Below, in pieces: positions 4,277-33,962 of a stretch of DNA of 64,000 bases. The stretch's first letter is position 1, and each line of letters opens with the position of its first letter. The notes under the pieces were generated by a model. It made no database searches and was not told where the DNA came from. It saw only the letters and a program-made list of their open reading frames with translations. Location: NCBI RefSeq assembly GCF_988242995.1, contig NZ_OZ547043.1; one strand, given 5' to 3'. The position numbers and the translations under genes were made by a program.

Positions 4277-4448
4277 GCTACATAAATCCCGACCAAAGGG
4301 AGTGAAGATATTAACACTAATTGTCCGCACTGAAGTTGTCACCCCAAAACTTTATACAACATTGCACTCGGTTGCATGTGTTCGCATGACAAATATCGGT
4401 GATAGCATATATCCACAATTATTTTTAATGAATGCAAAGAGGATGCGT

Positions 4449-5489: not shown

Positions 5490-5498
5490 GGGGGAGCA

Positions 5499-5840: not shown

Positions 5841-5851
5841 AGGGGGATACA

Positions 5852-6235
5852 ATGCAGAATGATTACAATGACCTTAAGCCAATTGCCGAAATGATGTACC
5901 CGAATCCAGCTGTAGAGGAATTAAAAGCTATCGCTGACAAAATGTGTTTAAGCGAGCGCCTTGTTGATATGAATCAGGTGATGGAAATTACAACCCTGAG
6001 TCGTCGTACACTGCTAAACCTTGAGGCTAGTGGAGAGTTCCCGGAGCGTGTGCAGGTTACGGAAGGGCGTAAGGCCTGGTATTTAAGTGAAGTGATCGAC
6101 TGGATAAATAATATTCCTCGCGCTTCTGAATATTGCCGCGTACCTGTCCCAAAAAAGCCAGATGCGGCGCTATGCCTCAAGATTGAGCGTGTACGCCGCA
6201 ATGCACGGGATGGTCGCTATAAGCTGATTGGTTGA
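5852..6235 (+). CDS. AlpA/excisionase-like HTH regulator
   Basis: 127-aa ORF; central segment MNQVMEITTLSRRTLLNLEASGEFPERVQVTEGRKAWYLSEVIDWINN resembles AlpA-family phage regulators. Confidence 0.55.
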   Translation: MQNDYNDLKPIAEMMYPNPAVEELKAIADKMCLSERLVDMNQVMEITTLSRRTLLNLEASGEFPERVQVTEGRKAWYLSEVIDWINNIPRASEYCRVPVPKKPDAALCLKIERVRRNARDGRYKLIG

Positions 6236-6397
6236 TGAAATTAGGGCCCGCTCTGGCTGGCGGGTCCTTTCCGGTGATCCAGAACGTTACGGGGCGTCAG
6301 GCGCGCAGATTCTTGCTATTTATGACAATTTTCTGCGATTTGCCGTTTCCGTTCTTCTTCCTCGTAACTTAGTGTTTTTACTAGAAATACCCTCTAA

Positions 6398-6448
6398 AAA
6401 GAAAGGAAATGACAGGTGCTGAAAACAGGCTTTTGGGTCTCCGTCATT
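6398..6448. terminator. Stem-loop (aaaggaaatgac ... gtcatttccttt) followed by T-rich tract
   Basis: 12-bp inverted repeat read directly, after the alpA-like gene. Confidence 0.4.
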
Positions 6449-6687
6449 TCCTTTCTCATTTTTATCTAAAAGTAAGCATCGAGGCCACCCCAAATGCTTA
6501 TAGAGGTTATTGTGTCACTATGCGTACTGTTCAGGATTTAAAGTAGCAAGACATCTAGTTGCTTGCAGTTTTGGCGAATGATGTGAGGTTCTCTATAACA
6601 GATAATGTAACAAGTTACTGATATATTCTGTTATGGTTGACTTTAAATTTTGTTGCTCCTTCAATGAATTATTGAGGGGTAAAAATT

Positions 6688-6713
6688 AGGCGTGATAAGA
6701 ATCGATCACGCCT
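6688..6713 (-). terminator. Rho-independent terminator for the 438-aa gene
   Basis: aggcgtgat/atcacgcct 9-bp stem immediately 3' of the minus-strand stop, followed on that strand by AATTTTTA. Confidence 0.45.
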
Positions 6714-6718
6714 ATTGT

Positions 6719-8035
6719 TTATCTTGAAGAAATTTTAGGCAGGCTTTTTAAAAATAAATCTTTATTTCTACTTGCATCAGTTAAAAGTGTTAGGAATATT
6801 TTATCTGTAGGAGTGCATGTGCTCTTGTTTAACAGTAATTCACCAAGTTTCTGTAATCGAGAGAATTGCCCATCCTCTTGGATTCTGTGACGAAGTGTAC
6901 TATCATTTTTAATAACATCAACAAATGCAGAAACCATGTTAATATCAAAGTGTTCAAACATTTCCAATATTAAAGGTGCAGCCCCATTTGAATAAAAATT
7001 CTTCCTTCCATACTGATAGCTGAAACCACGATGGCCAACATAAGTTTTTGTAATGGCTGAAACAAATTCAACAATATTATCTTCAGGGACGAAACTCGAG
7101 AATGGTAATAATTGGGTTACGATTTTTTCCTCTTCTGACCAATTATCTAAAGACTCGGTGAGTTTATTAATGAGAGGCTCAATAATAACTTTTCGGGATG
7201 CAGGGCTAATATACATCAGTCCATCTACCAATAGTATGAATTGTTGTGCCTTCTCTATCTTATTGTTGTTTCCTGAAACTAAATACTTGTCAAATTGTTG
7301 GCCGACTTTACGTCGGTCGTCTTTTGAAAGTAATGTCCATAAAATAGGTGCGCAAAATTCAATGTTGTTTCTGAGTTCACTTGATATATTGGATGAGCAG
7401 TATGTGCCAAAAAAACGAGAGGATAATTCACTGATATAAATTGCAGGTAGATCTGAAAAGGCTTGCTTAACTGCCAGACTATTTTTATTAAATGTTGCCG
7501 AATCCATTTCTGAAAGATATGTAGTTATATCTATGATGGCTGGTGGAAACTCTTTAGAAAGAACGTATTTATTACAATCATTAATCAGGTTCACTACTTT
7601 GATTAAATCAGGGTCGCTACTTTGTGGATGTCCACCAAATAGATTCCTGGTTTCTCTAGCTTGTTGTAATAGTTTCTGACCTTCTCGATCGATAACTCCT
7701 ATTTTAAATGCTCCATCTATTAAATCAAAGTCGCTCACATAATCCTGAAAATCTTCATACGTTTTAATTTCTTTTTTTTGTTTACACTCTTTGTTGAATA
7801 GATCTAGGCTACGATGAATTATCTTTTGACGTAAATCATCAACTACAGCATTCCAGTAAGCAGTGATGGCACTTCTATAACCTTTTACAGGAAGAACTCT
7901 TATTGCTTCTGAAATATATGGGCAGTCAACTACATCATGCCTCACAGTTGAGAGCGCAGTTTGTAACAATGTAACTTCTGTAGAGTCTAGTGGAGTTGGC
8001 TGCACTAAATGAGAACTTATCTCTGTACCCTTCAT
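6719..8035 (-). CDS. 438-aa hypothetical protein with N-terminal HEPN-like Rx5H motif (R130-N-L-F-G-G-H136); candidate abortive-infection/defence protein
   Basis: Long ORF on the opposite strand in a visibly AT-rich 2-kb block with its own upstream region and terminator; no similarity to phage structural or housekeeping proteins that I recognise. Confidence 0.5.
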   Translation of the reverse strand: MKGTEISSHLVQPTPLDSTEVTLLQTALSTVRHDVVDCPYISEAIRVLPVKGYRSAITAYWNAVVDDLRQKIIHRSLDLFNKECKQKKEIKTYEDFQDYVSDFDLIDGAFKIGVIDREGQKLLQQARETRNLFGGHPQSSDPDLIKVVNLINDCNKYVLSKEFPPAIIDITTYLSEMDSATFNKNSLAVKQAFSDLPAIYISELSSRFFGTYCSSNISSELRNNIEFCAPILWTLLSKDDRRKVGQQFDKYLVSGNNNKIEKAQQFILLVDGLMYISPASRKVIIEPLINKLTESLDNWSEEEKIVTQLLPFSSFVPEDNIVEFVSAITKTYVGHRGFSYQYGRKNFYSNGAAPLILEMFEHFDINMVSAFVDVIKNDSTLRHRIQEDGQFSRLQKLGELLLNKSTCTPTDKIFLTLLTDASRNKDLFLKSLPKISSR

Positions 8036-8391
8036 TTCAGGATTTTCCTATTCTTTTCCATTTTTCTACTCTATTGAATTTGAAAAAGATATCAAGTTCG
8101 TTCTTGCCAGTTTTAAGTGGAAAATTTGATGTTACCTTATTGAGATAAGGCAGTTCTCTATAACCTATTGTTATTAATTATTTTTATTTTTTTCCAATTC
8201 AGATGTTTAGGGCTAAGAAGTTAAGTGAGAGTTCACAGCAAAACTGCTTCTAGTTCCTCACCGAGGAGCAAAAGGTTAAGACAGCGTACTTTGTATTGCA
8301 CAATGTATTGCAGAACCTTCTTTCGAAAGCTACAACAATCAATTTTATATTGAAAATTCAATCATATCCTTTCGATATTGACTCATATAAC

Positions 8392-9179
8392 CCAAGCATG
8401 AGGTGAATCCGCAGATGACCCTGCGTCGCCTGCCGGATGAAGATCCGCAGAATCTGGCGGACCCGGCTTACCGCCGCCGTCGCATCATTATGCAGAACAT
8501 GCGTGACGAAGAGCTGGCCATTGCCCAGGTCGAAGAGATGCAGGCAGTTTCTGCCGTGCTTAAGGGCAAATACACCATGACCGGTGAAGCTTTCGATCCG
8601 GTTGAGGTGGATATGGGCCGCAGTGCGGCCAACAACATCACGCAGTCCGGCGGCACGGAGTGGAGCAAGCGTGACAAGTCCACGTATGACCCGACCGACG
8701 ATATCGAAGCCTACGCGCTGAACGCCAGCGGAGTGGTGAATATCATCGTGTTTGATCCGAAAGGCTGGGTGCTGTTCCGTTCCTTCAAAGCCGTCAAGGA
8801 GAAGCTGGATACTCGTCGCGGCTCTCATTCCGAGCTGGAGACAGCGGTGAAAGACCTGGGCAAAGCGGTGTCCTACAAGGGGATGTATGGCGATGTGGCC
8901 ATCGTCGTGTATTCCGGACAGTACGTGGAAAACGGCGTCAAAAAGAACTTCCTGCCGGACAACACGATGGTGCTGGGGAACACTCAGGCACGCGGTCTGC
9001 GCACCTATGGCTGCATTCAGGATGCGGACGCACAGCGCGAAGGCATTAACGCCTCTGCCCGTTACCCGAAAAACTGGGTGACCACCGGCGATCCGGCGCG
9101 TGAGTTCACCATGATTCAGTCAGCACCGCTGATGCTGCTGGCTGATCCTGATGAGTTCGTGTCTGTACAACTGGCGTAA
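8392..9179 (+). pseudogene. E: Major capsid gene E, 5'-truncated (about the first 96 codons missing)
   Basis: Translation from ...PKHEVNPQMTLRRLPDEDPQNLADPAYRRRR... to ...DPDEFVSVQLA is near-identical to lambda gpE residues about 97-341; upstream sequence is unrelated AT-rich DNA. Confidence 0.85.
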
Positions 9180-10661: not shown

Positions 10662-11372
10662 GTGCACAGAAAACCCCCAGCTAGGCTGGGGGTTCCGGAA
10701 AGCTTTCAGCTTTGAGCCAGTTATTAAAACCCCTTTTGATTTGTTAAAACACCTTGCGGTCTGGCAACTGCAAGTGTCAAACAAGAAATCAAAAGGGGGT
10801 CCCAATGGGGAACGAAAAGAGCTTAGCGCACACCCGATGGAACTGTAAATATCACATAGTTTTTGCGCCAAAATACCGAAGACAGGTGTTCTACAGAGAG
10901 AAGCGTAGAGCAATAGGCAGTATTTTGAGAAAGCTGTGTGAGTGGAAAAGCGTACGGATTCTGGAAGCTGAATGCTGTGCAGATCATATCCATATGCTTG
11001 TGGAGATCCCGCCCAAAATGAGCGTATCCGGGTTTATGGGATATCTGAAAGGGAAAAGCAGTCTGATGCTTTACGAGCAGTTTGGTGATTTGAAATTCAA
11101 ATACAGGAACAGGGAGTTCTGGTGCAGAGGGTACTACGTCGATACAGTGGGTAAGAACACGGCGAAGATACAGGATTACATAAAGCACCAGCTTGAAGAG
11201 GATAAAATGGGAGAGCAGTTATCGATTCCCTATCCGGGCAGCCCGTTTACGGGCCGTAAGTAACGAAGTTGGATGCAAATGTCAGATCGTGTGCGCCTGT
11301 TAGGGCGCGGCTGGTAAGAGAGCCTTATAGGCGCATTTGAAAAACCTCCGGCTATGCCGGAGGATATTTATT
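10662..11372 (+). mobile_element. IS200 (IS200/IS605 family), about 711 bp, with terminal hairpins
   Basis: Contains the Y1 transposase gene; left-end hairpin cccccagctaggctggggg and right-end hairpin ctccggctatgccggag; boundaries inferred from interruption of lambda U. Confidence 0.8.
10805..11263 (+). CDS. tnpA: IS200 transposase TnpA (Y1/HUH)
   Basis: MGNEKSLAHTRWNCKYHIVFAPKYRRQVFY...HIHMLVEIPPK... matches IS200 TnpA (152 aa). Confidence 0.9.
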   Translation: MGNEKSLAHTRWNCKYHIVFAPKYRRQVFYREKRRAIGSILRKLCEWKSVRILEAECCADHIHMLVEIPPKMSVSGFMGYLKGKSSLMLYEQFGDLKFKYRNREFWCRGYYVDTVGKNTAKIQDYIKHQLEEDKMGEQLSIPYPGSPFTGRK

Positions 11373-18204: not shown

Positions 18205-21200
18205 ATGGGTAAAGGCAGCAGTAAGGGGCATACCCCGCGCGAAGCGAAGGACAACCTGAAGTCCACGCAGCTGCTGAGTGTGATCGATGCCATCAGCGAA
18301 GGGCCGGTTGAAGGTCCGGTGGATGGATTAAAAAGCGTGCTGCTGAACAGTACGCCGGTGCTGGACAGTGAGGGGAATACCAATATATCCGGCGTCACGG
18401 TGGTGTTCCGGGCCGGTGAGCAGGAGCAGACTCCGCCGGAGGGATTTGAATCCTCCGGTTCCGAGACGGTGCTGGGTACGGAAGTGAAATATGACACGCC
18501 GATCACCCGCACCATCACGTCGGCAAACATCGACCGTCTGCGCTTTACCTTCGGTGTGCAGGCACTGGTGGAAACCACCTCAAAGGGGGACAGGAATCCA
18601 TCGGAAGTCCGCCTGCTGGTTCAGATACAACGTAACGGTGGCTGGGTGACGGAAAAAGACATCACCATTAAGGGTAAAACCACCTCGCAGTATCTGGCCT
18701 CAGTGGTGGTGGATAACCTGCCGCCGCGCCCGTTTAATATCCGGATGCGCAGGATGACGCCGGACAGCACCACAGACCAGCTGCAGAACAAAACGCTCTG
18801 GTCGTCATACACCGAAATCATCGATGTGAAACAGTGCTACCCGAACACGGCACTGGTCGGCGTGCAGGTGGACTCGGAGCAGTTCGGCAGCCAGCAGGTG
18901 AGCCGTAATTATCATCTGCGCGGGCGTATTCTGCAGGTGCCGTCGAACTATAACCCGCAGACGCGGCAATACAGCGGTATCTGGGACGGGACGTTTAAAC
19001 CGGCATACAGCAACAACATGGCCTGGTGTCTGTGGGATATGCTGACCCATCCGCGCTACGGCATGGGGAAGCGTCTCGGTGCGGCGGATGTGGACAAATG
19101 GGCGCTGTATGTCATCGGCCAGAATTGCGACCAGTCGGTGCCGGATGGCTTTGGTGGCACGGAGCCGCGCATCACCTGTAATGCCTGGCTGACCACGCAG
19201 CGCAAGGCGTGGGATGTGCTCAGTGATTTCTGCTCGGCGATGCGCTGTATGCCGGTATGGAACGGGCAGACGCTGACGTTCGTGCAGGACCGGCCATCGG
19301 ATAAGGTGTGGACCTATAACCGCAGTAATGTGGTGATGCCGGATGATGGCGCGCCGTTCCGCTACAGCTTCAGCGCCCTGAAGGACCGTCATAATGCCGT
19401 TGAGGTGAACTGGATTGACCCGGATAACGGCTGGGAGACGGCGACAGAGCTTGTGGAGGACACGCAGGCCATTGCCCGTTACGGTCGTAACGTCACGAAG
19501 ATGGATGCCTTTGGCTGTACCAGCCGGGGGCAGGCACACCGCGCCGGGCTGTGGCTGATTAAAACAGAACTGCTGGAAACGCAGACCGTGGATTTCAGCG
19601 TCGGCGCAGAAGGGCTTCGCCATGTACCGGGTGATGTTATTGAAATCTGCGATGATGACTATGCGGGGATCAGCATTGGCGGGCGCGTGCTGGCGGTGAA
19701 CAGCCAGACCCGGACGCTGACGCTCGACCGTGAAATCACGCTGCCATCCTCCGGTACCACGCTGATAAGCCTGGTTGACGGGCAGGGGAGTCCGGTCAGC
19801 GTGGAGGTTCAGTCCGTCACCGACGGCGTGAAGGTGAAAGTGAGTCGGGTTCCTGACGGCGTTGCCGAATACAGCGTGTGGGGGCTGAAGCTGCCGACGC
19901 TGCGCCAGCGCCTGTTCCGCTGTGTGAGTATCCGTGAGAACGATGACGGCACGTATGCCATCACCGCCGTGCAGCATGTACCGGAAAAAGAAGCCATCGT
20001 GGATAACGGGGCGCACTTTGACGGCGACCAGAGCGGCACGGTGAATGGTGTCACGCCGCCAGCGGTGCAGCACCTGACCGCCGAAGTCACCGCAGACAGC
20101 GGGGAATATCAGGTGCTGGCGCGATGGGACACGCCGAAGGTGGTGAAGGGCGTGAGCTTCCTGCTTCGCCTTACCGTGGCAGCGGACGACGGCAGTGAGC
20201 GGCTGGTCAGCATGGCCCGGACGACGGAAACCACATACCGCTTCAGGCAACTGGCGCTGGGGAACTACAGGCTGACAGTCCGGGCGGTAAATGCGTGGGG
20301 GCAGCAGGGCGATCCGGCGTCGGTATCGTTCCGGATTGCCGCACCGGCAGCACCGTCGAGGATTGAGCTGACGCCGGGCTATTTTCAGATAACCGCCACG
20401 CCGCATCTTGCCGTTTATGACCCGACGGTACAGTTTGAGTTCTGGTTCTCGGAAAATCGGATTGCGGATATCAGGCAGGTTGAAACCAGCGCGCGTTATC
20501 TTGGCACGGCGCTGTACTGGATAGCCGCCAGTATCAATATCAAACCGGGCCATGATTATTATTTTTACGTTCGCAGTGTGAACACCGTCGGCAAATCGAC
20601 ATTCGTGGAGGCTGTCGGTCGGGTGAGCGATGATGCGGAAGGTTACCTGGATTTTTTCAAAGGCAAGATAACCGAATCCCATCTCGGCAAGGAGCTGCTG
20701 GAAAAAGTCGAGCTGACGGAGGATAACGCCAGCAGACTGGAGGAGTTTTCGAAAGAGTGGAAGGACGCCAACGATAAGTGGAATGCCATGTGGGCTGTCA
20801 AAATTGAGCAGACCAAAGACGGCAAACATTATGTCGCGGGTATTGGCCTCAGCATGGAGGACACGGAGGAAGGCAAACTGAGCCAGTTCCTGGTTGCCGC
20901 TAACCGTATCGCATTTATTGACCCGGCAAACGGGAATGAAACGCCGATGTTTGTGGCGCAGGGCAATCAGATATTCATGAACGAAGTGTTCCTGAAATAT
21001 CTGACGGCTCCCACCATTACCAGCGGCGGTAATCCTCCGGCATTTTCCCTGACACCGGACGGGCGGCTGACGGCGAAAAATGCCGATATCAGCGGTAACG
21101 TGAATGCGAACTCCGGGACGCTCAACAACGTCACGATTAACGAGAACTGCCGGGTTCTGGGAAAACTGTCCGCGAACCAGATTGAAGGCGATCTCGTTAA

Positions 21201-21600
21201 AACAGTGGGCAAAGCTTTCCCCCGTGACTCCCGGGCACCGGAGCGGTGGCCATCAGGGACCATTACCGTCAGGGTTTATGACGATCAGCCGTTTGACCGG
21301 CAAATTGTTATTCCGGCGGTGGCATTCAGTGGCGCTAAGCATGAGAGAGAGCATACTGATATTTACTCCTCATGCCGTCTGATAGTGCGGAAAAACGGTG
21401 CTGAAATTTATAACCGTACCGCGCTGGATAATACGCTGATTTACAGTGGCGTTATTGATATGCCTGCCGGTCACGGTCACATGACACTGGAGTTTTCGGT
21501 GTCAGCATGGCTGGTAAATGGCTGGTATCCCACAGCAAGTATCAGCGATTTGCTGGTTGTTGTGATGAAGAAAGCCACTGCAGGCATCACGATTAGCTGA
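18205..21600 (+). CDS. J: Central tail fibre / host specificity protein J
   Basis: 1131-aa ORF matching lambda gpJ (lambda J is 1132 aa). Confidence 0.9.
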
Positions 21601-21618
21601 ATTTTATAACCCAGATAC

Positions 21619-21644
21619 GGGCACCAGAAATGGTGCCTTTTTTA
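21619..21644 (+). terminator. Rho-independent terminator after J (ggcacc...ggtgcc + TTTTTT)
   Basis: Read directly from sequence. Confidence 0.5.
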
Positions 21645-21667
21645 TTGCAGAAAAGCGAGAGGTAATT

Positions 21668-22267
21668 ATGCGTAAATTATGTGCTGTTATTCTGTCCGCA
21701 GTAGTCTGGCTGGTTGCCGCTGGTACGCCAGCGAGCGCAGCAGAGCATCAGTCCACACTAAGCGCCGGGTATCTTCAGACCCATACTGATATGCCAGGCA
21801 GTGATGACCTGAAGGGCATTAACGTGAAATACCGTTATGAATTTACGGACATGCTGGGGCTGGTGACGTCATTCAGTTATGCCAATGCCAAAGATGAGCA
21901 AAGAACGCATTACAGCGATACCCGCTGGCATGAAGATTCAGTGCGTAACCGCTGGTTCAGCATGATGGCGGGGCCATCTGTACGCGTGAATGAATGGTTC
22001 AGTGCTTATGCGATGGCAGGTGTGGCTTACAGCCGTGTTTCGACGTTCTCCGGGGATTATCTCCGCGTAACTGACAACAAGGGGAAAACGCACGATGTGC
22101 TGACCGGAAGTGATGACGATCGCCACAGCAACACGTCTCTGGCGTGGGGAGCTGGCGTGCAGTTTAACCCGACCGAATCCGTGGCCATTGATATTGCTTA
22201 TGAAGGCTCCGGCAGTGGCGACTGGCGCACTGACGGTTTCATCGTGGGTGTCGGTTATAAGTTCTGA
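21668..22267 (+). CDS. lom: Outer membrane protein Lom (Ail/Lom family)
   Basis: 199-aa ORF with signal peptide; matches lambda Lom. Confidence 0.85.
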   Translation: MRKLCAVILSAVVWLVAAGTPASAAEHQSTLSAGYLQTHTDMPGSDDLKGINVKYRYEFTDMLGLVTSFSYANAKDEQRTHYSDTRWHEDSVRNRWFSMMAGPSVRVNEWFSAYAMAGVAYSRVSTFSGDYLRVTDNKGKTHDVLTGSDDDRHSNTSLAWGAGVQFNPTESVAIDIAYEGSGSGDWRTDGFIVGVGYKF

Positions 22268-22293
22268 TTAGCCAGGTAACACAGTGTTATGAC

Positions 22294-22321
22294 AGCCCGC
22301 CGGTTCAGGCGGGCTTTTTTG
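22294..22321 (+). terminator. Rho-independent terminator after lom (gcccgcc...ggcgggc + TTTTTT)
   Basis: Read directly from sequence. Confidence 0.55.
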
Positions 22322-22325
22322 TGGA

Positions 22326-24722
22326 GTGGATATGGCAGCAGTAAAAATCTCAGGTGTGCTGAAAGATGGTGCGGGAAAACCAATACAGAACTGCACTATT
22401 CAACTGAAGGCAAAGCGTAACAGCACCACGGTACTGGTGAACACGGTGGCTTCTGAAAATCCGGATGAAGCCGGACGTTACAGCATGGATGTTGAGTATG
22501 GCCAGTACAGCGTCACCCTGCTGGTTGAAGGTTTTCCGCCTTCACATGCCGGGACCATTACCGTCTATGAAGGCTCCAGACCAGGTACGCTGAATGATTT
22601 TCTCGGTGCCATGACGGAAGATGATGTCATGCCGGAGGCATTGCGTCGTTTTGAGGCAATGGTGGAAGAAGCGGCACACAACGCTGAAGCCACCTTTCAG
22701 AGCGCAGCGGCGGCAAAGAAATCCGAAGCTGCTGCGGCATCATCGAAGAACGCGGCGAAAAGCTCAGAAACGAATGCAGCTAACAGCGCACAGGCGGCAG
22801 CGGCCTCACAGACTGCATCGGCAAACTCCGCGACAGCAGCCCAAAAATCAGAAGCCAACGCGAAAAATAGCGAAACAGCCGCAAAGACGAGCGAAACCAA
22901 CGCGAAGTCCAGCCAGACGGCAGCGAAAACCAGCGAAACGAATGCCAAAACCAGTGAAACTGCGGCGAAAAGCAGTCAGGCTGCAGCAGCCGAAAGCGAG
23001 AGTGCTGCAGCCGGTTCTGCGACTTCAGCAGCTGGATCAGCAACTGCTGCGGCTAACAGCCAGAAAGCAGCGAAGACGAGCGAAACTAACGCAAAGTCCA
23101 GCCAGACGGCAGCGAAGACCAGCGAAACGAATGCCAAAGCCAGCGAAACTGCGGCGAAAAACAGTCAGGATGCAGCGGCCCAAAGCGAGAGTGCCGCAGC
23201 TGGTTCTGCAAGTGCGGCGGCTTCTTCTGCCACTGCATCAGCCAACAGTCAAAAAGCTGCAAAAACCAGTGAAACCAACGCAAAGGCGAGCGAGACTGCG
23301 GCGGCGAACTCGGCGCAAGCATCGGCAGCAAGCCAGACAGCAGCTAAAGCAAGTGAAGACGCAGCCAGAGAGTATGCAAGCCAGGCAGCGGAGCCGTATA
23401 AACAAGTTTTGCAGCCGTTGCCCGATGTGTGGATACCGTTTAATGATTCACTGGATATGATTACGGGCTTTTCGCCATCATATAAAAAAATTGTTATTGG
23501 TGACGATGAAATAACGATGCCTGGCGACAAGATTGTTAAGTTTAAACGTGCATCAACGGCTACATATGTCAATAAATCCGGGGAACTGAAAATTGTAGCA
23601 ATCGACGAACCACGATTTGAAAAAGATGGTTTACTGATTGAAGGCCAACGAAGCAATTCATTTGCAGATTCTAATAATCCGTCGTTATGGAATAAAGCCG
23701 CACAATTGAATATAACCAATGGCAAAGATGAATTTGGTTTTACCTATGGTCTTATTAATGTTGTAGCCGAAACAAGCACTACCGGACGCGCTACATTTAT
23801 TTCAACTGGATATCCAAGATCAATGCCAGCAAAGGCAGGGGAATCTCTTACAATATCCTTCCGAGTTAAAAAAGTTGCTGGTGATGGGGTTCTGACAGTA
23901 TATCCGAGGATTGCTTATGTAAATGATGATGGCTCTAGTAATACTCTTTCTTCGAATGCCTATATAAATGCGGAAACGGGCGAAGTTTTAGGAACTCCTG
24001 CAGGCGGAAGCTCGACGAAAGTATATACTAAAATTGAATCCAATGGATGGTTGTTTGTATCTTTGACTTATAAAACCGCAGAAGACAAAACATTTTATGG
24101 TCGAATTGAAGTTGGTGCACATAAACGAGATATACAGATTGGTGATCAGTGGATGATAACGACACCGCAATTTGAAGTTGGTAGCAGTGCTTCTTCTTTT
24201 ATTATTTCTGGATCTGCGACAACGACAAGAGCGAGTGATTTAGTTACAATCCCGATCAAAAACAATATCTACAATTTACCGCTTACTGTAATGTGCGAAA
24301 CTAATCTTAATTGGGAATGGGATTCTCCGCCAAATGCCGCACCTAGAATAATGGATTTTACGGGTCAAAAAGCGGGGCAGGCCATAATTTATGGTCTACG
24401 TGGTGGGACTGCGGTTGATACTGGATCGCCCTATGTTGATATGGGTGATGGCGCTACAAGAATTAATAAGTATGTAAAAACAACAAATCGAAAGTTTATC
24501 TCTGGCTTTAGGTGTAAAGAAAATGGAGATACTCAAGCGTTTTGTAATTCTGTTTTTTCATCGTCTGCAAGGACAGATTATATTCATGTAGCACCAACTG
24601 CAACGATAAGATTTGGTGGGCAAACCAGTACGGGTGAGCGTCATATATTCGGACACATCCGAAATTTCAGGATTTGGCATAAAGCGTTAACTGATGCACA
24701 AATGGGGGAGAGTATTAAATGA
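22326..24722 (+). CDS. stf: Side tail fibre protein, mosaic: lambda Stf-like N-terminus, Ala/Ser/Thr-rich tandem-repeat shaft, unrelated AT-rich C-terminal domain
   Basis: N-terminus MDMAAVKISGVLKDGAGKPIQNCTIQLKAKRNSTTVLVNTV... matches lambda Stf; C-terminal about 440 aa (from ...QPLPDVWIPFNDSLD) has no lambda Stf similarity and lower GC. Confidence 0.8.
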   Translation: MDMAAVKISGVLKDGAGKPIQNCTIQLKAKRNSTTVLVNTVASENPDEAGRYSMDVEYGQYSVTLLVEGFPPSHAGTITVYEGSRPGTLNDFLGAMTEDDVMPEALRRFEAMVEEAAHNAEATFQSAAAAKKSEAAAASSKNAAKSSETNAANSAQAAAASQTASANSATAAQKSEANAKNSETAAKTSETNAKSSQTAAKTSETNAKTSETAAKSSQAAAAESESAAAGSATSAAGSATAAANSQKAAKTSETNAKSSQTAAKTSETNAKASETAAKNSQDAAAQSESAAAGSASAAASSATASANSQKAAKTSETNAKASETAAANSAQASAASQTAAKASEDAAREYASQAAEPYKQVLQPLPDVWIPFNDSLDMITGFSPSYKKIVIGDDEITMPGDKIVKFKRASTATYVNKSGELKIVAIDEPRFEKDGLLIEGQRSNSFADSNNPSLWNKAAQLNITNGKDEFGFTYGLINVVAETSTTGRATFISTGYPRSMPAKAGESLTISFRVKKVAGDGVLTVYPRIAYVNDDGSSNTLSSNAYINAETGEVLGTPAGGSSTKVYTKIESNGWLFVSLTYKTAEDKTFYGRIEVGAHKRDIQIGDQWMITTPQFEVGSSASSFIISGSATTTRASDLVTIPIKNNIYNLPLTVMCETNLNWEWDSPPNAAPRIMDFTGQKAGQAIIYGLRGGTAVDTGSPYVDMGDGATRINKYVKTTNRKFISGFRCKENGDTQAFCNSVFSSSARTDYIHVAPTATIRFGGQTSTGERHIFGHIRNFRIWHKALTDAQMGESIK
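22883..23300 (+). repeat. About 189-bp tandem repeat (2 copies plus a partial third) inside stf
   Basis: Near-identical DNA blocks starting aagacgagcgaaac...; protein repeat AAKTSETNAKSSQTAAKTSETNAK... Confidence 0.7.
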
Positions 24723-25000
24723 AAGATTTAACACTAAAATTTTCTGACAGGGCCGACTTTTCGGCCTTTATGGATAGCATTGGCTATTATGATGACGAGT
24801 CGATGCAGGATGATATTCTCATTGACGTGATAGGTAACGTGTACAAAGAAACCGGAGAACTGAATGAAGATGGCGAACCGGTATGTGTTAAGGAAGACGG
24901 ATATTTTGTAAACGTGCGCATCATTAATGATGTGAAAACACCGTCAATATTCGATGAATACGTGGTTGCTGTTGAGCATCAACTTCGTGGCTGGATGTGA
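24719..25000 (+). CDS. Hypothetical acidic protein (93 aa) downstream of stf
   Basis: ATGA overlap with stf stop; no recognisable family. Confidence 0.4.
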   Translation: MKDLTLKFSDRADFSAFMDSIGYYDDESMQDDILIDVIGNVYKETGELNEDGEPVCVKEDGYFVNVRIINDVKTPSIFDEYVVAVEHQLRGWM

Positions 25001-25009
25001 GGAAGAAAA

Positions 25010-25699
25010 ATGGCTACATCGACAGTAATTCCGGGAGACATTACCACGCTAAAGGGAGATGTCAGTAAAGCTAAGGAAGATATTTCCTCAATTAACGGAA
25101 AAGTATCAACGCTTCAGACTGATATGACCAGTGCAAAGCAGGATATCAGCACCAGATACACAAAAACTGAAGTTGATAATAAGCTGAAAAACAAAGTGGA
25201 AGTGAACGATCTGGAAAGTGGTCGTTATGGCGGAGATTTTTACCCGCTGACTGGCCGTGAAGCGTTTTATTTATGGGGATTGGGCACAACTACAGCGGCG
25301 GCAAATCTTTATCTTAATCCTGACCCTGCAATTTCGTCTGTGCTGCGGTCAACATCGTCTATCCGCTATAAACATTCAGTAGAGACGATAGATTCAGAGC
25401 ACGCCGATCTCATTTTCAAGATGCGCCCTGTATGGTACAGGTCGCAATGCGAAAATGACAGGCGCGGTTGGGGATTCTATGGATTGATTGCCGAGGAAGT
25501 AGGAGAAATTGCCCCTCAGTTTGTACACTGGCGACCAGCTAACGAGAATGATGCTCCTGAAGCTATTTCCAGCAATGGCCTTGTTGCCGAAGGTGTAATG
25601 TACGAACGTCTGGTTGTTCCACTGATTCACCATATCCAGAAACTGACTGAAAGAGTTGAAGAACTTGAGTCAGAATTAAAGTTGTTATCAACTTCCTGA
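25010..25699 (+). CDS. Short tail-fibre-like protein: N-terminal coiled coil plus C-terminal intramolecular-chaperone (peptidase S74-like) domain
   Basis: 229-aa ORF; C-terminal segment SSIRYKHSVETIDSEHADLIFKMRPVWYR...GFYGLIAEEVGEIAPQFV...GLVAEGVMYERLVVPLIHHIQKLTERVEELE resembles autoproteolytic chaperone domains of phage fibres and endosialidases. Confidence 0.55.
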   Translation: MATSTVIPGDITTLKGDVSKAKEDISSINGKVSTLQTDMTSAKQDISTRYTKTEVDNKLKNKVEVNDLESGRYGGDFYPLTGREAFYLWGLGTTTAAANLYLNPDPAISSVLRSTSSIRYKHSVETIDSEHADLIFKMRPVWYRSQCENDRRGWGFYGLIAEEVGEIAPQFVHWRPANENDAPEAISSNGLVAEGVMYERLVVPLIHHIQKLTERVEELESELKLLSTS

Positions 25700-25724
25700 A
25701 GCGATATTGGATAAAGGAGGAGTA

Positions 25725-26018
25725 ATGGATATAACACCTTTCCTTCACGCGCTTTGTGCTGTGGCTGCGCAGGTACTGGTTGGTCTTTTTACCGGGAACT
25801 GGGCTTACGGGGCGATAGCCGGTTGTACGTTCTTCATTGCGCGTGAACACACCCAGGCAGAATATCGCTGGATTGAAATGTTCGGGCATGGCAAGCGAAT
25901 GAATATGCCGTGGTGGGGCGGTTTTGATCCGCGAGCGTGGGATGTGGCAAGCCTGATGGATTTTGCTGTGCCGGTGGTGGCGTGTCTGCTGGTCTGGCTG
26001 TTGGTTAATCGTGGGTGA
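25725..26018 (+). CDS. Small predicted membrane protein (97 aa, two hydrophobic segments); possible moron or exclusion protein
   Basis: Strong AAGGAGG RBS before MDITPF...; hydrophobic stretches read from translation. Confidence 0.45.
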   Translation: MDITPFLHALCAVAAQVLVGLFTGNWAYGAIAGCTFFIAREHTQAEYRWIEMFGHGKRMNMPWWGGFDPRAWDVASLMDFAVPVVACLLVWLLVNRG

Positions 26019-26689
26019 AAAAAGGTGAGCTGTATATGCAACGGAGGAAGAAACCCCGTTGCTGGAAGCCTGGAAAAAGTATCGGGTGCTGCTAAACCGT
26101 GTGGACACTTCCGTAGCACCAGATATCGAGTGGCTTATTCAACCATAATAAACAGTATGTATATCATAGGTTATTAATTGTGAGTTTTTTCGGTGTGTTA
26201 TTTGTTTGATGTTATGATTTTGCGCCCCAAAAGGTTGTTTAGATGTATTTTATCAATTGATTTTCAATATCGTTTAATAAAGAAAAATTAAGCAAGTTGG
26301 ATGTTGGTTTTTTGTTAATTGAATGGTTCTAATAATGTTTTTTTACTGTTGTTGAATGTGACTTGATAAGAAATGCAAGTAAAAATGATACTCTTTTTAT
26401 TTTAAATTCAAACGGTTGACATATATATAGCAAGAGGTTTCAGGTGCGTTGTAGTGAGTTTATGTTAATAAAAAGCATAGTAAGCGTTGAAAAATGTAAC
26501 TTTGAAATACGTTAGAATAAAAAACAATATACATATAATAATTTAATCTTAAATGAAATTTATTAAAAATTGCAAACTATAATTTTGTGTATAAAAATAT
26601 AAATGCACATCATCCTGATTATGATTGTGTATTTAATTGGTTGTTATTTGACTACTATCAACTTGTTTTAATTTTATGATAGGTGCAAG

Positions 26690-27439
26690 ATGGATTATGT
26701 TTGCTCCGTAGTTTTCATCTGTCAATCATTTGATTTAATTATAAACAGGAGAGTTATCTCGTTCAAAAAAAATTCATTGTTTATTGTAAGCGACAAAATT
26801 AGAAGAGAGTTACCAGTATGCCCCTCTAAACTAAGAATTGTTGATATAGATAAGAAAACATGTTTATCCTTTTTTATCGACGTGAATAATGAGTTGCCTG
26901 GCAAATTTACTCTTGATAAGAATGGCTATATTGCTGAAGAGGAACCTCCATTATCGCTTGTTTTTTCTCTGTTTGAAGGGATTAAAATAGCAGACTCACA
27001 CTCCCTTTGGTTAAAAGAAAGACTATGTATATCCTTACTTGCCATGTTCAAAAAACGCGAAAGTGTAAATTCATTTATACTAACAAATATAAATACATTT
27101 ACCTGTAAAATTACTGGAATAATCAGTTTTAATATTGAGCGGCAATGGCATTTAAAAGATATTGCGGAATTGATTTATACGAGTGAAAGTTTAATAAAAA
27201 AAAGATTAAGGGATGAAGGAACGTCATTTACTGAAATATTGAGAGATACTAGGATGAGGTATGCAAAAAAACTCATAACTTCAAACTCTTATTCTATCAA
27301 TGTCGTAGCCCAGAAATGTGGCTATAACAGTGCTTCATATTTCATATGTGCATTTAAAGATTATTATGGTGTCACGCCATCTCATTATTTTGAGAAAATA
27401 ATCGGCGTCACAGATGGAATAAACAAAACAATTGACTGA
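26690..27439 (+). CDS. appY: AraC-family transcriptional activator AppY
   Basis: 249-aa ORF matching E. coli AppY; AT-rich upstream region. Confidence 0.85.
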
Positions 27440-27645
27440 TAATGTTTATTACAAGTTGTCTACATGTTAATTATAATATTATACAGCGTGTTTTTTGATG
27501 TGATATTCTGGAACCATTAATTTGTAATTGGGTTGCTGTCGCCTATTTTATACACACTATAATTGATGGTTTTCTATGTGATTTAGTTAATAACCTTCTG
27601 GGTTTATTTTAAGGGGTAATTGTTACATTGAAATGGCTAGTTATT

Positions 27646-27670
27646 CCCCGGGGCGATTTTCACCTCGGGG
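27646..27670. terminator. Bidirectional stem-loop (ccccgggg...cgggg) between convergent appY and ompT
   Basis: Read directly from sequence. Confidence 0.35.
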
Positions 27671-27688
27671 AAATTTTAGTTGGCGTTC

Positions 27689-28642
27689 TTAAAATGTGTA
27701 CTTAAGACCAGCAGTAGTGATGAAGTTATAGTTTTCTATGCCTGCACCATTTTTGCTGTAGTCTGAAGTGTTATCATTGTGATCATAAAGTGAAGTATTA
27801 CCTTTTTTATTCGTAACCCGATTCCATGCGCCTTCAACATAAACTTTTGCGTTAGGTGTTACGTAATAACCTGCATTGACTGCAACAGAATAGTAATTTT
27901 GGTCTTTGACTTTACTGCGATAAGTGATTCTTTTTCCTGGGTCATAGTGCTCATCGTTATCAGATGCTTCCACCCAGCCGCTGTATTTAAATGTGCCACC
28001 TAGCTCAAAATCTTCATAACGATAACTTCCAGTCAAGCCAATGTAGGGCATTTTAAAACGTTGTTTGTAGCCGATTGCTCTTTCTCCATTCGGGAAGGAG
28101 CCGATATCATCTCTGAATCCCTCCTCAGAACTGTAGATATAGGAACCACCTCTGGCTGTAAAGCTATAACGGCTTTCCTGATATCCGGCCATGAGTCCCA
28201 GGCGGTAATTGGGTTCGTTGAGGAGCCAGCCTTTGATATTCAGATCAAATTCGTTGGCATAATTGAGTTGTGTATCAGGGTGCCTACTTTCATCTGTCCA
28301 GGTTCCGGGGTTACTGGAATCCATCCAGTCCTGATCGACCATATTGCCACCTCGGCTGCCGAGAGTAGTCCAGCCCGCAGCCCCAATAGATATCTGGGGC
28401 ATCAAATCCCAATTAATTGCACCTTTAATAATTGCAGCGTTATTGAATTTCCAGTCGAGTTGACTGACTTTTCGGCCTCCTTCTTCAGCTAGATAAACGC
28501 GCTCTTTTGTTTTTCCGCTCAGAGTTCCAAGACTAATGTCCGCATTTATGTTGTCAGGAGTAAACGATATAGTCTCGGTAGAAGCAAAAGAGCTGATCGC
28601 AATAGGGGTTGTCAGGACTATTCCCAGAAGTTTCGCCCGCAT
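27689..28642 (-). CDS. ompT: Outer membrane protease OmpT (omptin)
   Basis: 317-aa ORF matching E. coli OmpT. Confidence 0.9.
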   Translation of the reverse strand: MRAKLLGIVLTTPIAISSFASTETISFTPDNINADISLGTLSGKTKERVYLAEEGGRKVSQLDWKFNNAAIIKGAINWDLMPQISIGAAGWTTLGSRGGNMVDQDWMDSSNPGTWTDESRHPDTQLNYANEFDLNIKGWLLNEPNYRLGLMAGYQESRYSFTARGGSYIYSSEEGFRDDIGSFPNGERAIGYKQRFKMPYIGLTGSYRYEDFELGGTFKYSGWVEASDNDEHYDPGKRITYRSKVKDQNYYSVAVNAGYYVTPNAKVYVEGAWNRVTNKKGNTSLYDHNDNTSDYSKNGAGIENYNFITTAGLKYTF

Positions 28643-29064
28643 AAAAGTTCTCCATTCAATCGTTTTAATGATTGAATATGTATTTTTTATATCTAACTTA
28701 ATGAGTCAATTACATATTGCTCCACTGTTTATATTTTGTTTAGTATTGAATGATTATCACAATGCGCTATCTGTTTTTGGTTTAATTATCTGTTATTGTT
28801 TTATATTGCGGTTTTACTGTGTGGTTTTTTATGCTTTTGTGGTGTTTTTATCTATTTAAGCGCCATGCCTTTAGAGGCATATAAGCGAAAATAGCATGAG
28901 GTTTATCCTCAATTGCTATGTTTTTTAGTACAAAAAAGAGGGACAAAACTGAGACACATAAGGCCTCACAATGGCTTGCAAGGCTTTACATGTTTTGAGG
29001 TAGTGGGACGTGTGAGCGCAGAGATGGCGTGGTAAGTTGTTGACTTAAAATGTCGTTCTAGGAA

Positions 29065-29109
29065 CTTCTAAGTCGTGGGCCGCAGGTTCGAATCCTGCAG
29101 GGCGCGCCA
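29065..29109 (+). other. argU: attR: 3' 45 nt of tRNA-Arg(UCU) argU (anticodon loop to CCA end)
   Basis: cttctaagtcgtgggccgcaggttcgaatcctgcagggcgcgcca matches the 3' portion of argU; the 5' half of the tRNA is absent. Confidence 0.8.
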
Positions 29110-29154
29110 TTTCTTCTTCATTTATCCCCGTCTTATCCGTTTCCGCTTTGCCCT

Positions 29155-29916
29155 TCACCACATCACTTTTTGTCGCTGTTTGGCGAGATAATTCAACGGT
29201 GTCAGGCCGTAAAACGCCTTAAAAACAGAGATAAAGTACGACGTGCTGCTATAGCCACATAATTGCGCTACCTGAGTGATATTTTTGTTATCCATCAATA
29301 ACATCTGTACGGCGTAACGCATACGACACTCTGTGACAATCTGGCTATAGCTGGTATTTTCGTTTTTTAATTTCTTTTTGAGCAGGCTGGGGCTTAAACA
29401 TAGCGAACTGGCGACAATTCGCAGATTCCAGTAATGCTGAATATCGCTTTGAATAATGCGGCAGACGCTGTCGCGGACGCTGCTGCGTAAGATATACATC
29501 AGTAGGGCAATAAACCGCGATTGCTCAAGAAAGTTAGACAATACGGTAAAAAGCAATGCGCGCGTCAACTCCGCTTCGCAGGGTTTGCTGGGTTGCTGCT
29601 TGCTGTGGTTGGCGGCTAGCCGGAACACTTCCGGTGTACGGCTATGACAAGCGATAACCGGGGTAGCCAGCCGCGACCAGGGCTTTACGCAGGTTAAGTT
29701 CTTATTTAAAAACAACAGATAATCGTTGATGATGTTGCGGTTGATGTGGGTGATTAATACGTGATTTAACGTTGAGAGTTCAATGACGTTATTGTTGCAC
29801 GCGAAGGCGGCCAGGTAATTTTTCGGAAGGGTAAACGTGGCATGGTTATTGACGCTTACCTCTACCTCTTTTTCGGTCAGGATCACTACGCAAGGTTCAC
29901 TGCTGCTCAATTGCAT
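29155..29916 (-). CDS. envY: AraC-family regulator EnvY
   Basis: 253-aa ORF matching E. coli EnvY. Confidence 0.85.
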   Translation of the reverse strand: MQLSSSEPCVVILTEKEVEVSVNNHATFTLPKNYLAAFACNNNVIELSTLNHVLITHINRNIINDYLLFLNKNLTCVKPWSRLATPVIACHSRTPEVFRLAANHSKQQPSKPCEAELTRALLFTVLSNFLEQSRFIALLMYILRSSVRDSVCRIIQSDIQHYWNLRIVASSLCLSPSLLKKKLKNENTSYSQIVTECRMRYAVQMLLMDNKNITQVAQLCGYSSTSYFISVFKAFYGLTPLNYLAKQRQKVMW

Positions 29917-30098
29917 TTCGCACTCCTCAGATATCAGAAACTCCGCTCAAAGGATCTATGCTTCCTGCATGAGTGATCGGCCCGTTCGCCGATAACGATC
30001 TTCTTTCTTTAGCACGCTTTTTAGCAATTAATCTTGATGGAATTCTGACGAGAGCGAAAGAGGTAAGCCAGGTCGTACCCGACTTACCTGGAGGGGAT

Positions 30099-30989
30099 TT
30101 AATACTCGAGAATGCCGTGCGCAACGGGCAAATAGCGCAGAGAGAAATAGAGCGTGTCTTTACCGCAAGAGGAACGTTTCGCTAACAGCGAGGCGATCTC
30201 TGCATCCGGTTTCGGTTTCGCTGTAAAGGTTTTACCTTTGCCGGCGACAAACAGTTCATAAACAATGCCGCTGGCAGGGGCGGAACTTTGGCAATCGGCG
30301 CTGGCCTGTAGATAACGTTCACGCTGTTCAACGGTAAGTTTATTCACGCCGCTGCCATCCTGTACCCAGACATTAACGCCGGTTGTTTTAACTTGTTCCA
30401 GCAGTTGGCGATAGCCATCGGGCGACATGTTTCCGGCGAAAAAACTACTGATATAAACCGGTTTTGCTGAAACATCGCTAATCAACCGCTGCGCGTTGTT
30501 TAACCATGTCAGCAACGGTTGACGGGCGGCTTCGCTGCGCCAGTTCAGGTCGTCAATTTCCGCGCTGATGTACCAGCCATCCGGCGTTACGCCAGGCGCG
30601 GCGCTCCATAATCTGGCTTGCTGGAGATCGGCAGCCAGCAGGCGATTAAGATAGCTTTCCAGCGCCGCGGATGACTGTTTCTGGTGCATAAAAAATTCCG
30701 GATCGGCATTCAGCCCGACAATCAGCTTCAGGCCAGCCTGTTGCGCAGCTGCTGCACGCTTAAACAATAACGCGCGCTGTTCTGGCTGGGTGAATGCATC
30801 GCCGTAACGGGTCCATTGCAAAACCAGGGTATCGAAGCCTTGCAAACGTAACTGACTCATCAGCCCCTGCCACTGGGTATCGGTAACCTGACTATCACGG
30901 TTTTGTGGTTGCCAGATAATACCTTTCATCGCAAAGGAAAAAGGGCTGACCAAAAGCAGTGTCAGCAATACGAAAATGAACTTACGCAT
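30099..30989 (-). CDS. ybcH: Uncharacterised protein YbcH
   Basis: 296-aa ORF with signal peptide; synteny upstream of nfrA. Confidence 0.8.
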   Translation of the reverse strand: MRKFIFVLLTLLLVSPFSFAMKGIIWQPQNRDSQVTDTQWQGLMSQLRLQGFDTLVLQWTRYGDAFTQPEQRALLFKRAAAAQQAGLKLIVGLNADPEFFMHQKQSSAALESYLNRLLAADLQQARLWSAAPGVTPDGWYISAEIDDLNWRSEAARQPLLTWLNNAQRLISDVSAKPVYISSFFAGNMSPDGYRQLLEQVKTTGVNVWVQDGSGVNKLTVEQRERYLQASADCQSSAPASGIVYELFVAGKGKTFTAKPKPDAEIASLLAKRSSCGKDTLYFSLRYLPVAHGILEY

Positions 30990-33962
30990 TTACCAGTGCA
31001 CTCCAATGGTGAGAAACGCGTTGTTGCGCTCTCCGTTACGTTGATTAATCGCCTTAAAGGTATGTTGATATTCGATGCCGAGACTGACTTTGTGCGGCCA
31101 GGCGTCGTAGTGCGTCTCGCCGGTCCAGATATTCCAGCGGACCCCGACACCGCCAAGCTGCGCGCCCTGAGTGCCTTTATCACGATAACCGTTGTCCTGA
31201 ACGTGAGCGTAAGGCTCAATAGTCTGTCCGTTCGCCACCTTCTGATGCCAGCTTACGCGATAATCTGCCGTCCACGCCTGAATATCCTGGCGGACATATT
31301 GCGCCGCATCGAGGTACAGGTTTTGGGCAAACCAGCCTGAACCGTTCGGGTGCCATTCGTCGCTGTATTTGCCGCCATTAAAGAATGAGGCGCTGGCGCG
31401 CAGCATGGTATCGGATGCGCCATTTTGCCCGTTCAGCGGCAACTGCTGTTCGACTGCGAGGAAAAAGATCTGATCGCGCAGCGGCTTCCAGCGCAGACCG
31501 GTGCCGGACATCGGATTTTTCACCGGCATCATCACCCCGTTTTCTCCGGTATCGGCAAAGACGCGGCTATAAACTGAGAGCAGGTCGCCTTCCAGCAGCA
31601 TATTGCGTCCGATGCGGTACTCGGCTTCCAGTTGCCCGTAGCTACGATAGCTTTTCCCTGGCGCTGCGCCGCCGACATTATTGTTAGCGGTACTCATTGC
31701 GCCGGAACGCAAGCCGATGGAAGAATCGAAACTGAACGTCCAGCGGCGACCGACCTCCTCATGCAGACGGCGGAAATTGAAGCGTTGCTGATTTTGCTCT
31801 GGGGTCAGTGGGGTTATCAGCGCCTGATTATCAATGTCATCAATCACCAGCCGGGCGTAGTGCTGCGTCGCAGGCATGTCATCCAGACGCTGGTTCACGT
31901 AGGCCAGTTGTCGGATAAGTGCCGGATCGTCCGGTAGCCCTTTATGCGCCTGTTCGAGCATTTCCCGCGACTGTGCGATATCACCGCTATCCCACAAGGC
32001 GTAACCGAGCGCTGCCTGGGTGTTGCTATTATTCGGTTCCAGTTCCAGCGCGGCGCGCAAATCACTCACCGCCGCCGGGACATTATGACGTTGGCGATAA
32101 ATTGTCGCCCGCGCAACGTAAGCGTTGGCAGAAGGCGCAATATTGATTGAGCGCGTGAGATCGTTCAGTGCGAGTTCCGGCTGACCAGGAATGTAACGTT
32201 GCGCATGCAGCCACCAGTAGAGGGCATTGTTTCCCAGCCCACGTTGTTCTGCCTGCTGAAGCCAGCGATCGCGAGCCGCACCATTTCCTGCCGCCTGGGC
32301 GGTATTGGCAGCAGCAAGCAGATCCTCATTGCTCATGTCGTGAAGACTGATTTTCTGCCAGGCCGCCAGTGCGGTGGCGTAATCCTCAACCTGATACGCC
32401 TGATAGGCTACCGCACGATGTTGCCAGGCGTTCGGTTGTCGTTGTTCGGCCTGAAGCCATGCATACAACGCCACACCGGGTAGCGTGTCCCGATAACACT
32501 TTGCCAGACGGTTCCAGGCGGCGGCATCGTAGGAAGGCGACATATCGCCCAGCAAGCGAACTATTGCCGGGCAATTATCTGCAATACCCGGCAACTGACT
32601 TTGCCACTGACGTTGCTCCGCCAGCGGTAAGGGTTTCGATAAAATCGCCACCTTCGCCGGCGTTGCCAGGTAAGGATGACTTTCCAGCAGAGACGCCAGT
32701 CGCGCCATTAAAGTCTGGCTGACACGCGCATCGCCCTGGAAAGGATAGCGTTGCAGCAATAAATCGGCAGCTTCGCGTGACTGCTCGTTCTGCATCAGTT
32801 GCCAGGTCAGTTGATCCAGGCGGGTAAGATTTTCCGGTTCTTGCTGATACAGCAATCGTGCCAGACGCAGAGCTTCAGCCTTGTTATGGGTCGCTACGCT
32901 AACGGTATAACGCTCCTCAAGCATTTCATTGGCGGGGAGGGTGGCGAGCAGTTTTTGCGCTGCGTCGTACTGACCTTCTTTTAACAGCACCGGTAGCGTC
33001 GCGCCAACAACATACTGGCGGTTGTCAGCAAACTGTACCGTATAATTCGCCAACGCCTGAACGGGGTTGCCGCTGTATTTAGATAACAGATAGAGCCAAC
33101 TTTTCTCTTGTGCGTCCGTGGTAAATAGCGGCGTATTTTCAATGAGATAACGCTGGAGGCGTGCTTTTTCGTCACGATAAGCCAGCGCGGTCGCGTAAGT
33201 AATATATGACTGCGGATCGGTGAAGATCCCCTGTGATTGCAGCGCCAGGATCCGATCGTCCAGCTGCCCGGCAAGAAGCACATCAAACCACTGGCGGCGT
33301 TCTGCCGCGCTTAATGTGTTCTGCTGGCGTGCTTCATTGTATAGCGTATCTGCCTGGGACCATTGCTTCAGGTAGATTGCCCGTTGCAGCAGATCGGTTC
33401 GCAGCGTTTTTCCTTCCGGCGATGCAGCAAACGTCGCATCGTTCAGTTGCGCTCTGGCGACAGGTAATTGTGCCAGCCGCAGGGCATTCTGCCCAACTTC
33501 ACTGCGACAACGCAGGGTCGGCGCAGCATCGCACGCTTTTTGCTGGGCAAGCAGTTCTTCAACAGTCGTAACGCTTTTCACTTCAACTGGAATAGCCGCC
33601 AGACTGCGCTCAAGTCGGGCATCTCCTGGGTGACGTTTCAGTTGATCCTCAAGCAACAGCCGCGCCCGGTCATCATGACCAAAATGGCGATAGGCTTCCG
33701 CAAGGTATAAAGTTAGCGGAATATTATCCGGCACCTGCTGGTGTATATATTCAAATTCGCGGATGGCGGTTGCTTCGTCGTTATTTTTCTGTGCCTTCAG
33801 CGCCTTGTCGAGACGGGGATAAATAACAAAATGGCGATAATCGCTCAGCCCCAGCTCTTCTGCGCTGGTGCCGATATTGTCTGCGAGTGCGCTGGTACTC
33901 AATAAAGACGTCAGCAGTAAACCAGACCATCCGATGACGCGATTAAGGTTATTCTCCTTCAT
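30990..33962 (-). CDS. nfrA: Bacteriophage N4 adsorption protein A (outer membrane, TPR-rich)
   Basis: Matches E. coli NfrA from MKENNLNRVIGWSGLLL...; ends ...TIGVHW. Confidence 0.9.
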   Translation of the reverse strand: MKENNLNRVIGWSGLLLTSLLSTSALADNIGTSAEELGLSDYRHFVIYPRLDKALKAQKNNDEATAIREFEYIHQQVPDNIPLTLYLAEAYRHFGHDDRARLLLEDQLKRHPGDARLERSLAAIPVEVKSVTTVEELLAQQKACDAAPTLRCRSEVGQNALRLAQLPVARAQLNDATFAASPEGKTLRTDLLQRAIYLKQWSQADTLYNEARQQNTLSAAERRQWFDVLLAGQLDDRILALQSQGIFTDPQSYITYATALAYRDEKARLQRYLIENTPLFTTDAQEKSWLYLLSKYSGNPVQALANYTVQFADNRQYVVGATLPVLLKEGQYDAAQKLLATLPANEMLEERYTVSVATHNKAEALRLARLLYQQEPENLTRLDQLTWQLMQNEQSREAADLLLQRYPFQGDARVSQTLMARLASLLESHPYLATPAKVAILSKPLPLAEQRQWQSQLPGIADNCPAIVRLLGDMSPSYDAAAWNRLAKCYRDTLPGVALYAWLQAEQRQPNAWQHRAVAYQAYQVEDYATALAAWQKISLHDMSNEDLLAAANTAQAAGNGAARDRWLQQAEQRGLGNNALYWWLHAQRYIPGQPELALNDLTRSINIAPSANAYVARATIYRQRHNVPAAVSDLRAALELEPNNSNTQAALGYALWDSGDIAQSREMLEQAHKGLPDDPALIRQLAYVNQRLDDMPATQHYARLVIDDIDNQALITPLTPEQNQQRFNFRRLHEEVGRRWTFSFDSSIGLRSGAMSTANNNVGGAAPGKSYRSYGQLEAEYRIGRNMLLEGDLLSVYSRVFADTGENGVMMPVKNPMSGTGLRWKPLRDQIFFLAVEQQLPLNGQNGASDTMLRASASFFNGGKYSDEWHPNGSGWFAQNLYLDAAQYVRQDIQAWTADYRVSWHQKVANGQTIEPYAHVQDNGYRDKGTQGAQLGGVGVRWNIWTGETHYDAWPHKVSLGIEYQHTFKAINQRNGERNNAFLTIGVHW

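Follow-up and report, generated by a model that had tools for sequence, protein, structure and literature searches.

The argU 3' fragment beside envY as an attachment site, and appY and ompT as passengers of a DLP12-family prophage

What is a fragment of a tRNA gene doing between ompT and envY, and do the genes on its two sides belong to the same replicon? We addressed this question in a 64,000-nt stretch of DNA (contig NZ_OZ547043.1 of assembly GCF_988242995.1), which we call the window. The initial annotation had taken the fragment for the right attachment site, attR, of a mobile island, with the regulator gene appY and the protease gene ompT as cargo inside the boundary, and envY and everything beyond it outside. 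According to our analysis, the window almost certainly covers the right-hand half of a lambda-like, DLP12-family prophage inserted in argU, with the core of attR at 29065–29109 and with appY and ompT as its passengers.

This much is known. Both the MG1655 annotation and the literature record the attachment site in argU, the copy of the tRNA 3' end at attR and the descent of appY and ompT from a prophage. The present work adds tool-based confirmation for this strain, the finding that infectious phages still carry the appY–ompT–attP module, figures for the occupancy of the site and the left edge of the module, which lies at a scar in the tail-fibre-assembly gene tfa.

Results

The argU fragment

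The 45 nt at 29065–29109 (plus strand), CTTCTAAGTCGTGGGCCGCAGGTTCGAATCCTGCAGGGCGCGCCA, reproduce without mismatch the 3' end of argU, the tRNA-Arg(UCU) gene, from the start of the anticodon loop to the CCA. Identity is 45/45 to the end of K-12 argU (gene at 724–800 of the K-12 locus, match at 756–800) and also to argU of four other strains. With up to three mismatches permitted, the 45-mer matches nowhere else in the 64-kb window, and none of 100 shuffles matched. Since ARAGORN places the anticodon of argU at gene position 35 and the copy begins at position 33, its start coincides with that of the 7-nt anticodon loop. When one mismatch is permitted, identity to argU begins three bases earlier, at 29062 (GAA versus GAC in argU); this explains both the BLAST matches starting at 29062 and the length of 47 bp that the literature gives for the argU 3' copy at the DLP12 attR (PMC6379469).

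The sequence upstream of the 45 nt is unrelated to the 5' half of argU. An intact argU at this position would have contradicted the attR assignment; neither ARAGORN nor Rfam found one there, and ARAGORN reported no tRNA in the whole 64-kb window.

Comparison of the four junctions

The 45 nt and their flanks were compared with an empty site, a free phage and occupied sites. The empty site, attB, of strain CFSAN061763 is composed of the 5' part of argU, the core and tttcttcttcatttatccccg. In attP of phage Kati (PP925833) the core is preceded by ...gtcgttctaggaa and followed by ttacaattcaatcag and then by the integrase gene, so that it sits between an ompT side (...aaaatgtcgttctaggaa) and an integrase side (ttacaattcaatcag...). 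At attL, in K-12 and in strain AST215, the 5' part of argU and the core are joined to ttacaattcaatcag; at attR, in the window, K-12, AST215 and RM8082, ...gtcgttctaggaa and the core are joined to tttcttc.... All four junction types were observed directly, and together they form the set BOB', POP', BOP' and POB' that is expected for site-specific integration.

The flanks in the window agree with this assignment base by base. Over the 60 nt to the left of the core, one base differs from the attP flank of Kati and one from the attR flank of K-12, while AST215 is identical. The 60 nt to the right (29110–29169, into envY) are identical to the 3' flank of the intact argU of CFSAN061763. The copy is thus flanked by the P arm of a free phage on its left (28643–29064, the region upstream of ompT, assigned by its match to the flank of Kati attP) and by the B' side of an unoccupied attB on its right (29110–29154, the native downstream sequence of argU leading to envY), and it marks attR as had been proposed. 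Its direct-repeat partner would be the core inside the intact argU at attL, upstream of the window.

The protein encoded by the integrase gene next to the core in Kati is a tyrosine recombinase (Pfam Phage_integrase, 5e-47) and shares 99% identity with K-12 IntD.

The chromosomal side

The first chromosomal gene beyond the prophage is envY (29155–29916, minus strand; protein 99.6% identical to K-12 EnvY), which adjoins argU at empty sites and is followed in the window by ybcH, nfrA and nfrB. The empty locus of CFSAN061763 has the gene order fimZ–argU–envY–ybcH–nfrA, with neither phage nor appY and ompT, and window positions 29062–32700, which cover envY, ybcH and nfrA, align to it at 99.3% identity. 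As this homology starts at 29062/29065 and continues through envY, ybcH and nfrA, the placement of envY and its successors outside the island is confirmed. A comparison with the DLP12 limits of K-12, which the initial annotation had recommended, gave the same boundary: in the MG1655 record, the span of 'cryptic prophage DLP12' (564755..586056) opens with the first base of the attL core and stops immediately short of the attR core; it includes appY and ompT and leaves out envY.

The appY–ompT module

To the left of the core lies an AT-rich module of ∼3 kb (26038–29064) that is 98–99% identical in K-12 DLP12, Kati and PhiR68_2 (PV340576) and is missing at empty sites. It holds appY (26690–27439, plus strand), encoding a regulator with AraC-family matches in NCBIfam and 99.6% identity to K-12 AppY, and ompT (27689–28642, minus strand), encoding an omptin outer-membrane protease (NCBIfam omptin, 708 bits; 99.1% identical to K-12 OmpT). 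Homology to K-12 DLP12, Kati and PhiR68_2 begins exactly at 26038 and runs to the core (98.3–98.5%); over 26038–29111, identity to Kati is 98.4%. On its left, the module is bounded by a C-terminal fragment of tfa (26038–26148, plus strand): these first 111 nt encode just the C-terminal 36 residues of the tail-fibre-assembly protein, and the AST215 annotation has a partial tail fiber assembly protein at the corresponding place. Because the module starts with a truncated tfa, it appears to have been joined to varying tail-fibre regions by way of a recombination scar in tfa, and this scar points to mosaic exchange between phages.

GC content is 25–34% over 26000–27600, around appY, compared with 48–57% in most of the tail block and in envY–nfrA; the distal tail-fibre ORFs contain a stretch of 40%. 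A promoter and terminator scan of 25900–29300 returned 10 promoter-like sites versus 12.2 expected, that is, chance level. AppY has been described as DLP12-encoded, with appY expressed from DLP12 (PMC10057817).

The module is preceded by a tail-tip and tail-fibre block (18205–26018, plus strand), identified from the ORF list, synteny with AST215 and domain matches. On this strand, a J-like tail-tip ORF of 1131 aa (18205–21600) is followed by an ORF of the Ail/Lom-OmpX family (21668–22267, Ail/Lom family match), a tail fibre ORF with spike-fibre matches (22326–24722) and small fibre-associated ORFs up to 26018, with a Peptidase_S74 chaperone domain at 25010–25699. The position given to appY and ompT by the initial annotation, downstream of the tail and fibre genes, was therefore accurate. 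Lying between these genes and the core, absent where argU abuts envY and found near attP in phages, the two genes are inside the boundary.

Free phages carrying the module

Eight phage records have ompT adjoining the att core: Kati, PhiR68_2, Turner, 2G7b, ev243, PhiR49_1, PhiR26_1 and PhiR30_1. Two of the eight, Kati and PhiR68_2, also have appY, and the other six are ompT-only. As in the window, the cargo in these phages stands beside the same core (98.4–99.7% identity). They differ from the window in that their attP is intact, with the core between the P and P' arms, and in the tail-fibre and invertase region to the left of 26038. The gene order in Kati, whose sequence is virion-derived, is tail fibre, tfa, invertase, appY, ompT, core, integrase; the record of PhiR68_2 ends exactly at the last base preceding the core. 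PhiR68.2 has been reported as plaque-forming in published assays (recent preprint). Since the appY–ompT module is present on infectious phages, it is packaged and transmitted by them, and the description of the two genes as cargo inside the boundary is correct. Being inside an att-bounded element, present on infectious phages and deviant in base composition, appY and ompT are passenger (moron) genes.

These phages also bear on a different history, in which appY, ompT and the argU fragment would be the stranded right end of an older, decayed argU island; the tail-bearing prophage would have come later and lost its attR, and the cargo would not be part of it. Such layering might be suspected because the module begins at a recombination scar, the truncated tfa at 26038–26148, because the tail-fibre region to its left differs among the window, K-12 and Kati, and because ompT modules occur elsewhere as remnants, for example near minCDE in O157:H7. 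But the window holds no second copy of the core, even at three mismatches, and mosaic exchange among lambdoid phages accounts better for the scar in tfa. Moreover, single phage genomes of 46–50 kb (Kati and PhiR68_2) hold the module between the tail-fibre genes and attP–int, which shows that it travels with one phage. We consider the layered history very improbable.

The left end, by comparison with AST215

The 64-kb window contains neither attL nor argU: it has no tRNA and only one copy of the core. Because the window starts in a satellite inside the head region of the prophage, attL should lie some tens of kb upstream of it. The nearest of 5,426 complete E. coli genomes is that of AST215, with 99.7% identity over 26019–29700 and the best match over the prophage body (84% coverage). 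In AST215, attL (argU and intD) is located 59.6 kb upstream of attR. By analogy with AST215, we infer that the prophage of the window also has argU, attL and an integrase gene at its left end.

The argU prophage of AST215 also contains a gene for an inverse autotransporter of 1302 aa (intimin/invasin-like; 21038–24946 of the AST215 locus), located between the replication genes and the ybcN/ninE region. It is likely another passenger gene.

Occupancy of argU and variants of the right end

To put the locus in context, junctions were counted over the 5,426 complete E. coli genomes. The empty attB junction was present in 2,538 and the attL junction with the integrase-side arm in 2,883, two classes that sum to nearly all genomes; the attR junction as in the window was found in 1,618 and the whole appY–ompT–attR–envY stretch in 817. 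The argU site is thus occupied in about half of the complete genomes, with this attR in ∼30% and the full module in 15%. Some 1,265 genomes have attL without this attR junction, which indicates that the two prophage ends can be uncoupled by deletion. S21EC, for instance, retains ompT together with a methyltransferase gene and fragments of an integrase gene and of tfa, whereas the attR core and envY are gone; their deletion has locked ompT into the chromosome. RM8082 has kept ompT and attR, with a hydrolase gene in place of appY.

An alternative right-end module was also seen, composed of a methyltransferase gene, a tfa fragment, an alpha/beta hydrolase gene and ompT, without appY. In O157:H7 strain E32511, an ompT remnant with IS66 is located near minCDE and not at argU.

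tRNA-like matches at the fragment

No tRNA reached the gathering score of Rfam in the window; a sensitive scan gave a partial match only, driven by the T arm (22.3 bits versus a gathering score of 29), which extends over 29015–29098. In the Kati record, an 84-nt 'tRNA-Pro' is annotated over attP (6994–7077 of the Kati locus), where ARAGORN finds no tRNA; this annotation looks like an artefact due to the argU 3' fragment. In older K-12 annotations, the attR pseudo-tRNA is named pauD. A reading of the fragment as a functional or pseudo-tRNA, comparable to the 'tRNA-Pro' of Kati, was rejected, as ARAGORN detected nothing and the Rfam score stayed below the gathering threshold.

We give practically no credence to the remaining explanation, by which the fragment would be a decayed duplicate tRNA or a chance similarity with no recombination junction, and appY and ompT ordinary chromosomal genes: the weak Rfam match and the 'tRNA-Pro' at the same place in Kati might be cited for it, but the comparison of attB, attP, attL and attR refutes it, as do a 45/45 identity that starts exactly at the anticodon loop and is matched by none of the 100 shuffles, an upstream flank unrelated to the argU 5' half, the lack of any ARAGORN tRNA at this place in the window and in Kati, and the 2,538 genomes in which argU abuts envY with neither appY nor ompT between them.

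The prophage body

K-12 DLP12 and the prophage of the window share the att core, the P arm, the B' arm and the module of tfa fragment, appY and ompT (98.3% identity), and have the same chromosomal neighbours, envY, ybcH, nfrA and nfrB. They differ in what lies behind these ends: DLP12 contains IS3 and IS5 and no longer has its head and tail genes, whereas the prophage of the window retains most head genes and a complete tail and fibre block of lambda type, together with an embedded satellite and an IS200-type insertion.

The satellite occupies window positions 1–8380, where it interrupts the lambda E-like major capsid gene of the prophage itself. Encoded on it are a D5_N/DUF5906 primase (1488–3239), an SSB (3783–4232), an E-like capsid protein of its own (4236–5489), a D-like decoration protein (5499–5840), AlpA (5852–6235) and, on the minus strand, a 438-aa ORF without Pfam match (6719–8035). 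Beyond it, at 8403–9179, remains a C-terminal fragment of the capsid gene that matches positions 94–328 of the 329 of Pfam Phage_cap_E. The same arrangement of a satellite in the capsid gene is present in AST215. The satellite matches the 'helper-embedded PICI' of 11capE type (PMC10111431); the helper prophage of that report is at icd, whereas here it is at argU.

Relative to AST215, the window has an insertion of ∼707 bp in the tail-gene region (10664–11371), which contains an IS200-type transposase gene (Y1_Tnp, 10754–11263) and a match to the STnc490 RNA (10672–10795; Rfam, 146 bits). With its capsid gene split by the satellite and an IS200-type element in its tail region, the prophage of the window is, to judge from its gene content, probably not fully functional as it stands.

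Discussion

A prophage of the DLP12 family integrated at argU accounts for both the tRNA fragment and the position of appY and ompT. Phages with tRNA-targeting integrases, such as P22, bring along the 3' portion of their target tRNA gene, and integration thereby restores the gene. In the present case, the 45-nt argU copy in attP of the circular phage is flanked by the P arm on the ompT side and by the P' arm with the integrase gene on the other, and an IntD-type tyrosine integrase would recombine this phage core with the identical stretch of the chromosomal argU. After integration, argU at attL would be complete and functional, with phage DNA and int next to its 3' part, and at the far end attR consists of the P arm, a copy of the core and the native downstream sequence of argU running into envY. 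The crossover point would fall within the 45 nt. The prophage of the window may still be able to excise; indirect support comes from close phage relatives that have this attP and exist as virions.

Phage lambda likewise has accessory genes between its tail-fibre genes and attP, although they differ from those found here, and it integrates between gal and bio, not in a tRNA gene. Here, appY and ompT occupy the equivalent accessory slot, between the tail-fibre genes and attP in the position of the lambda b region; being in this slot, they are packaged and moved with the phage as passengers.

The 420 nt on the ompT side of the core may have a further role. Two repeated motifs, TGGGAC and AAATGTCGT, are common to this stretch and to the integrase-side arm. 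In the window, they are located at 29004–29009 and 29048–29056, respectively. Kati attP has four copies of TGGGAC on a single strand at up to 300 nt from the core, versus 0.17 expected, and two copies of AAATGTCGT. The two motifs are candidate arm-type binding sites of the integrase, as suggested by their recurrence. If they bind the integrase or accessory factors, assembly of the recombination complex could couple the expression of ompT to the state of the prophage. That the 420 nt between ompT and att do so, and the related idea that the satellite-bearing prophage still mobilises appY–ompT between strains, are speculative proposals that we regard as unlikely.

In the chromosomal part of the window, two tandem matches to the sok antitoxin RNA (60263–60418 and 60766–60921; 85 and 82 bits) and a match to the ES036 sRNA (61866–61907) were also detected, which presumably correspond to hok/sok loci.
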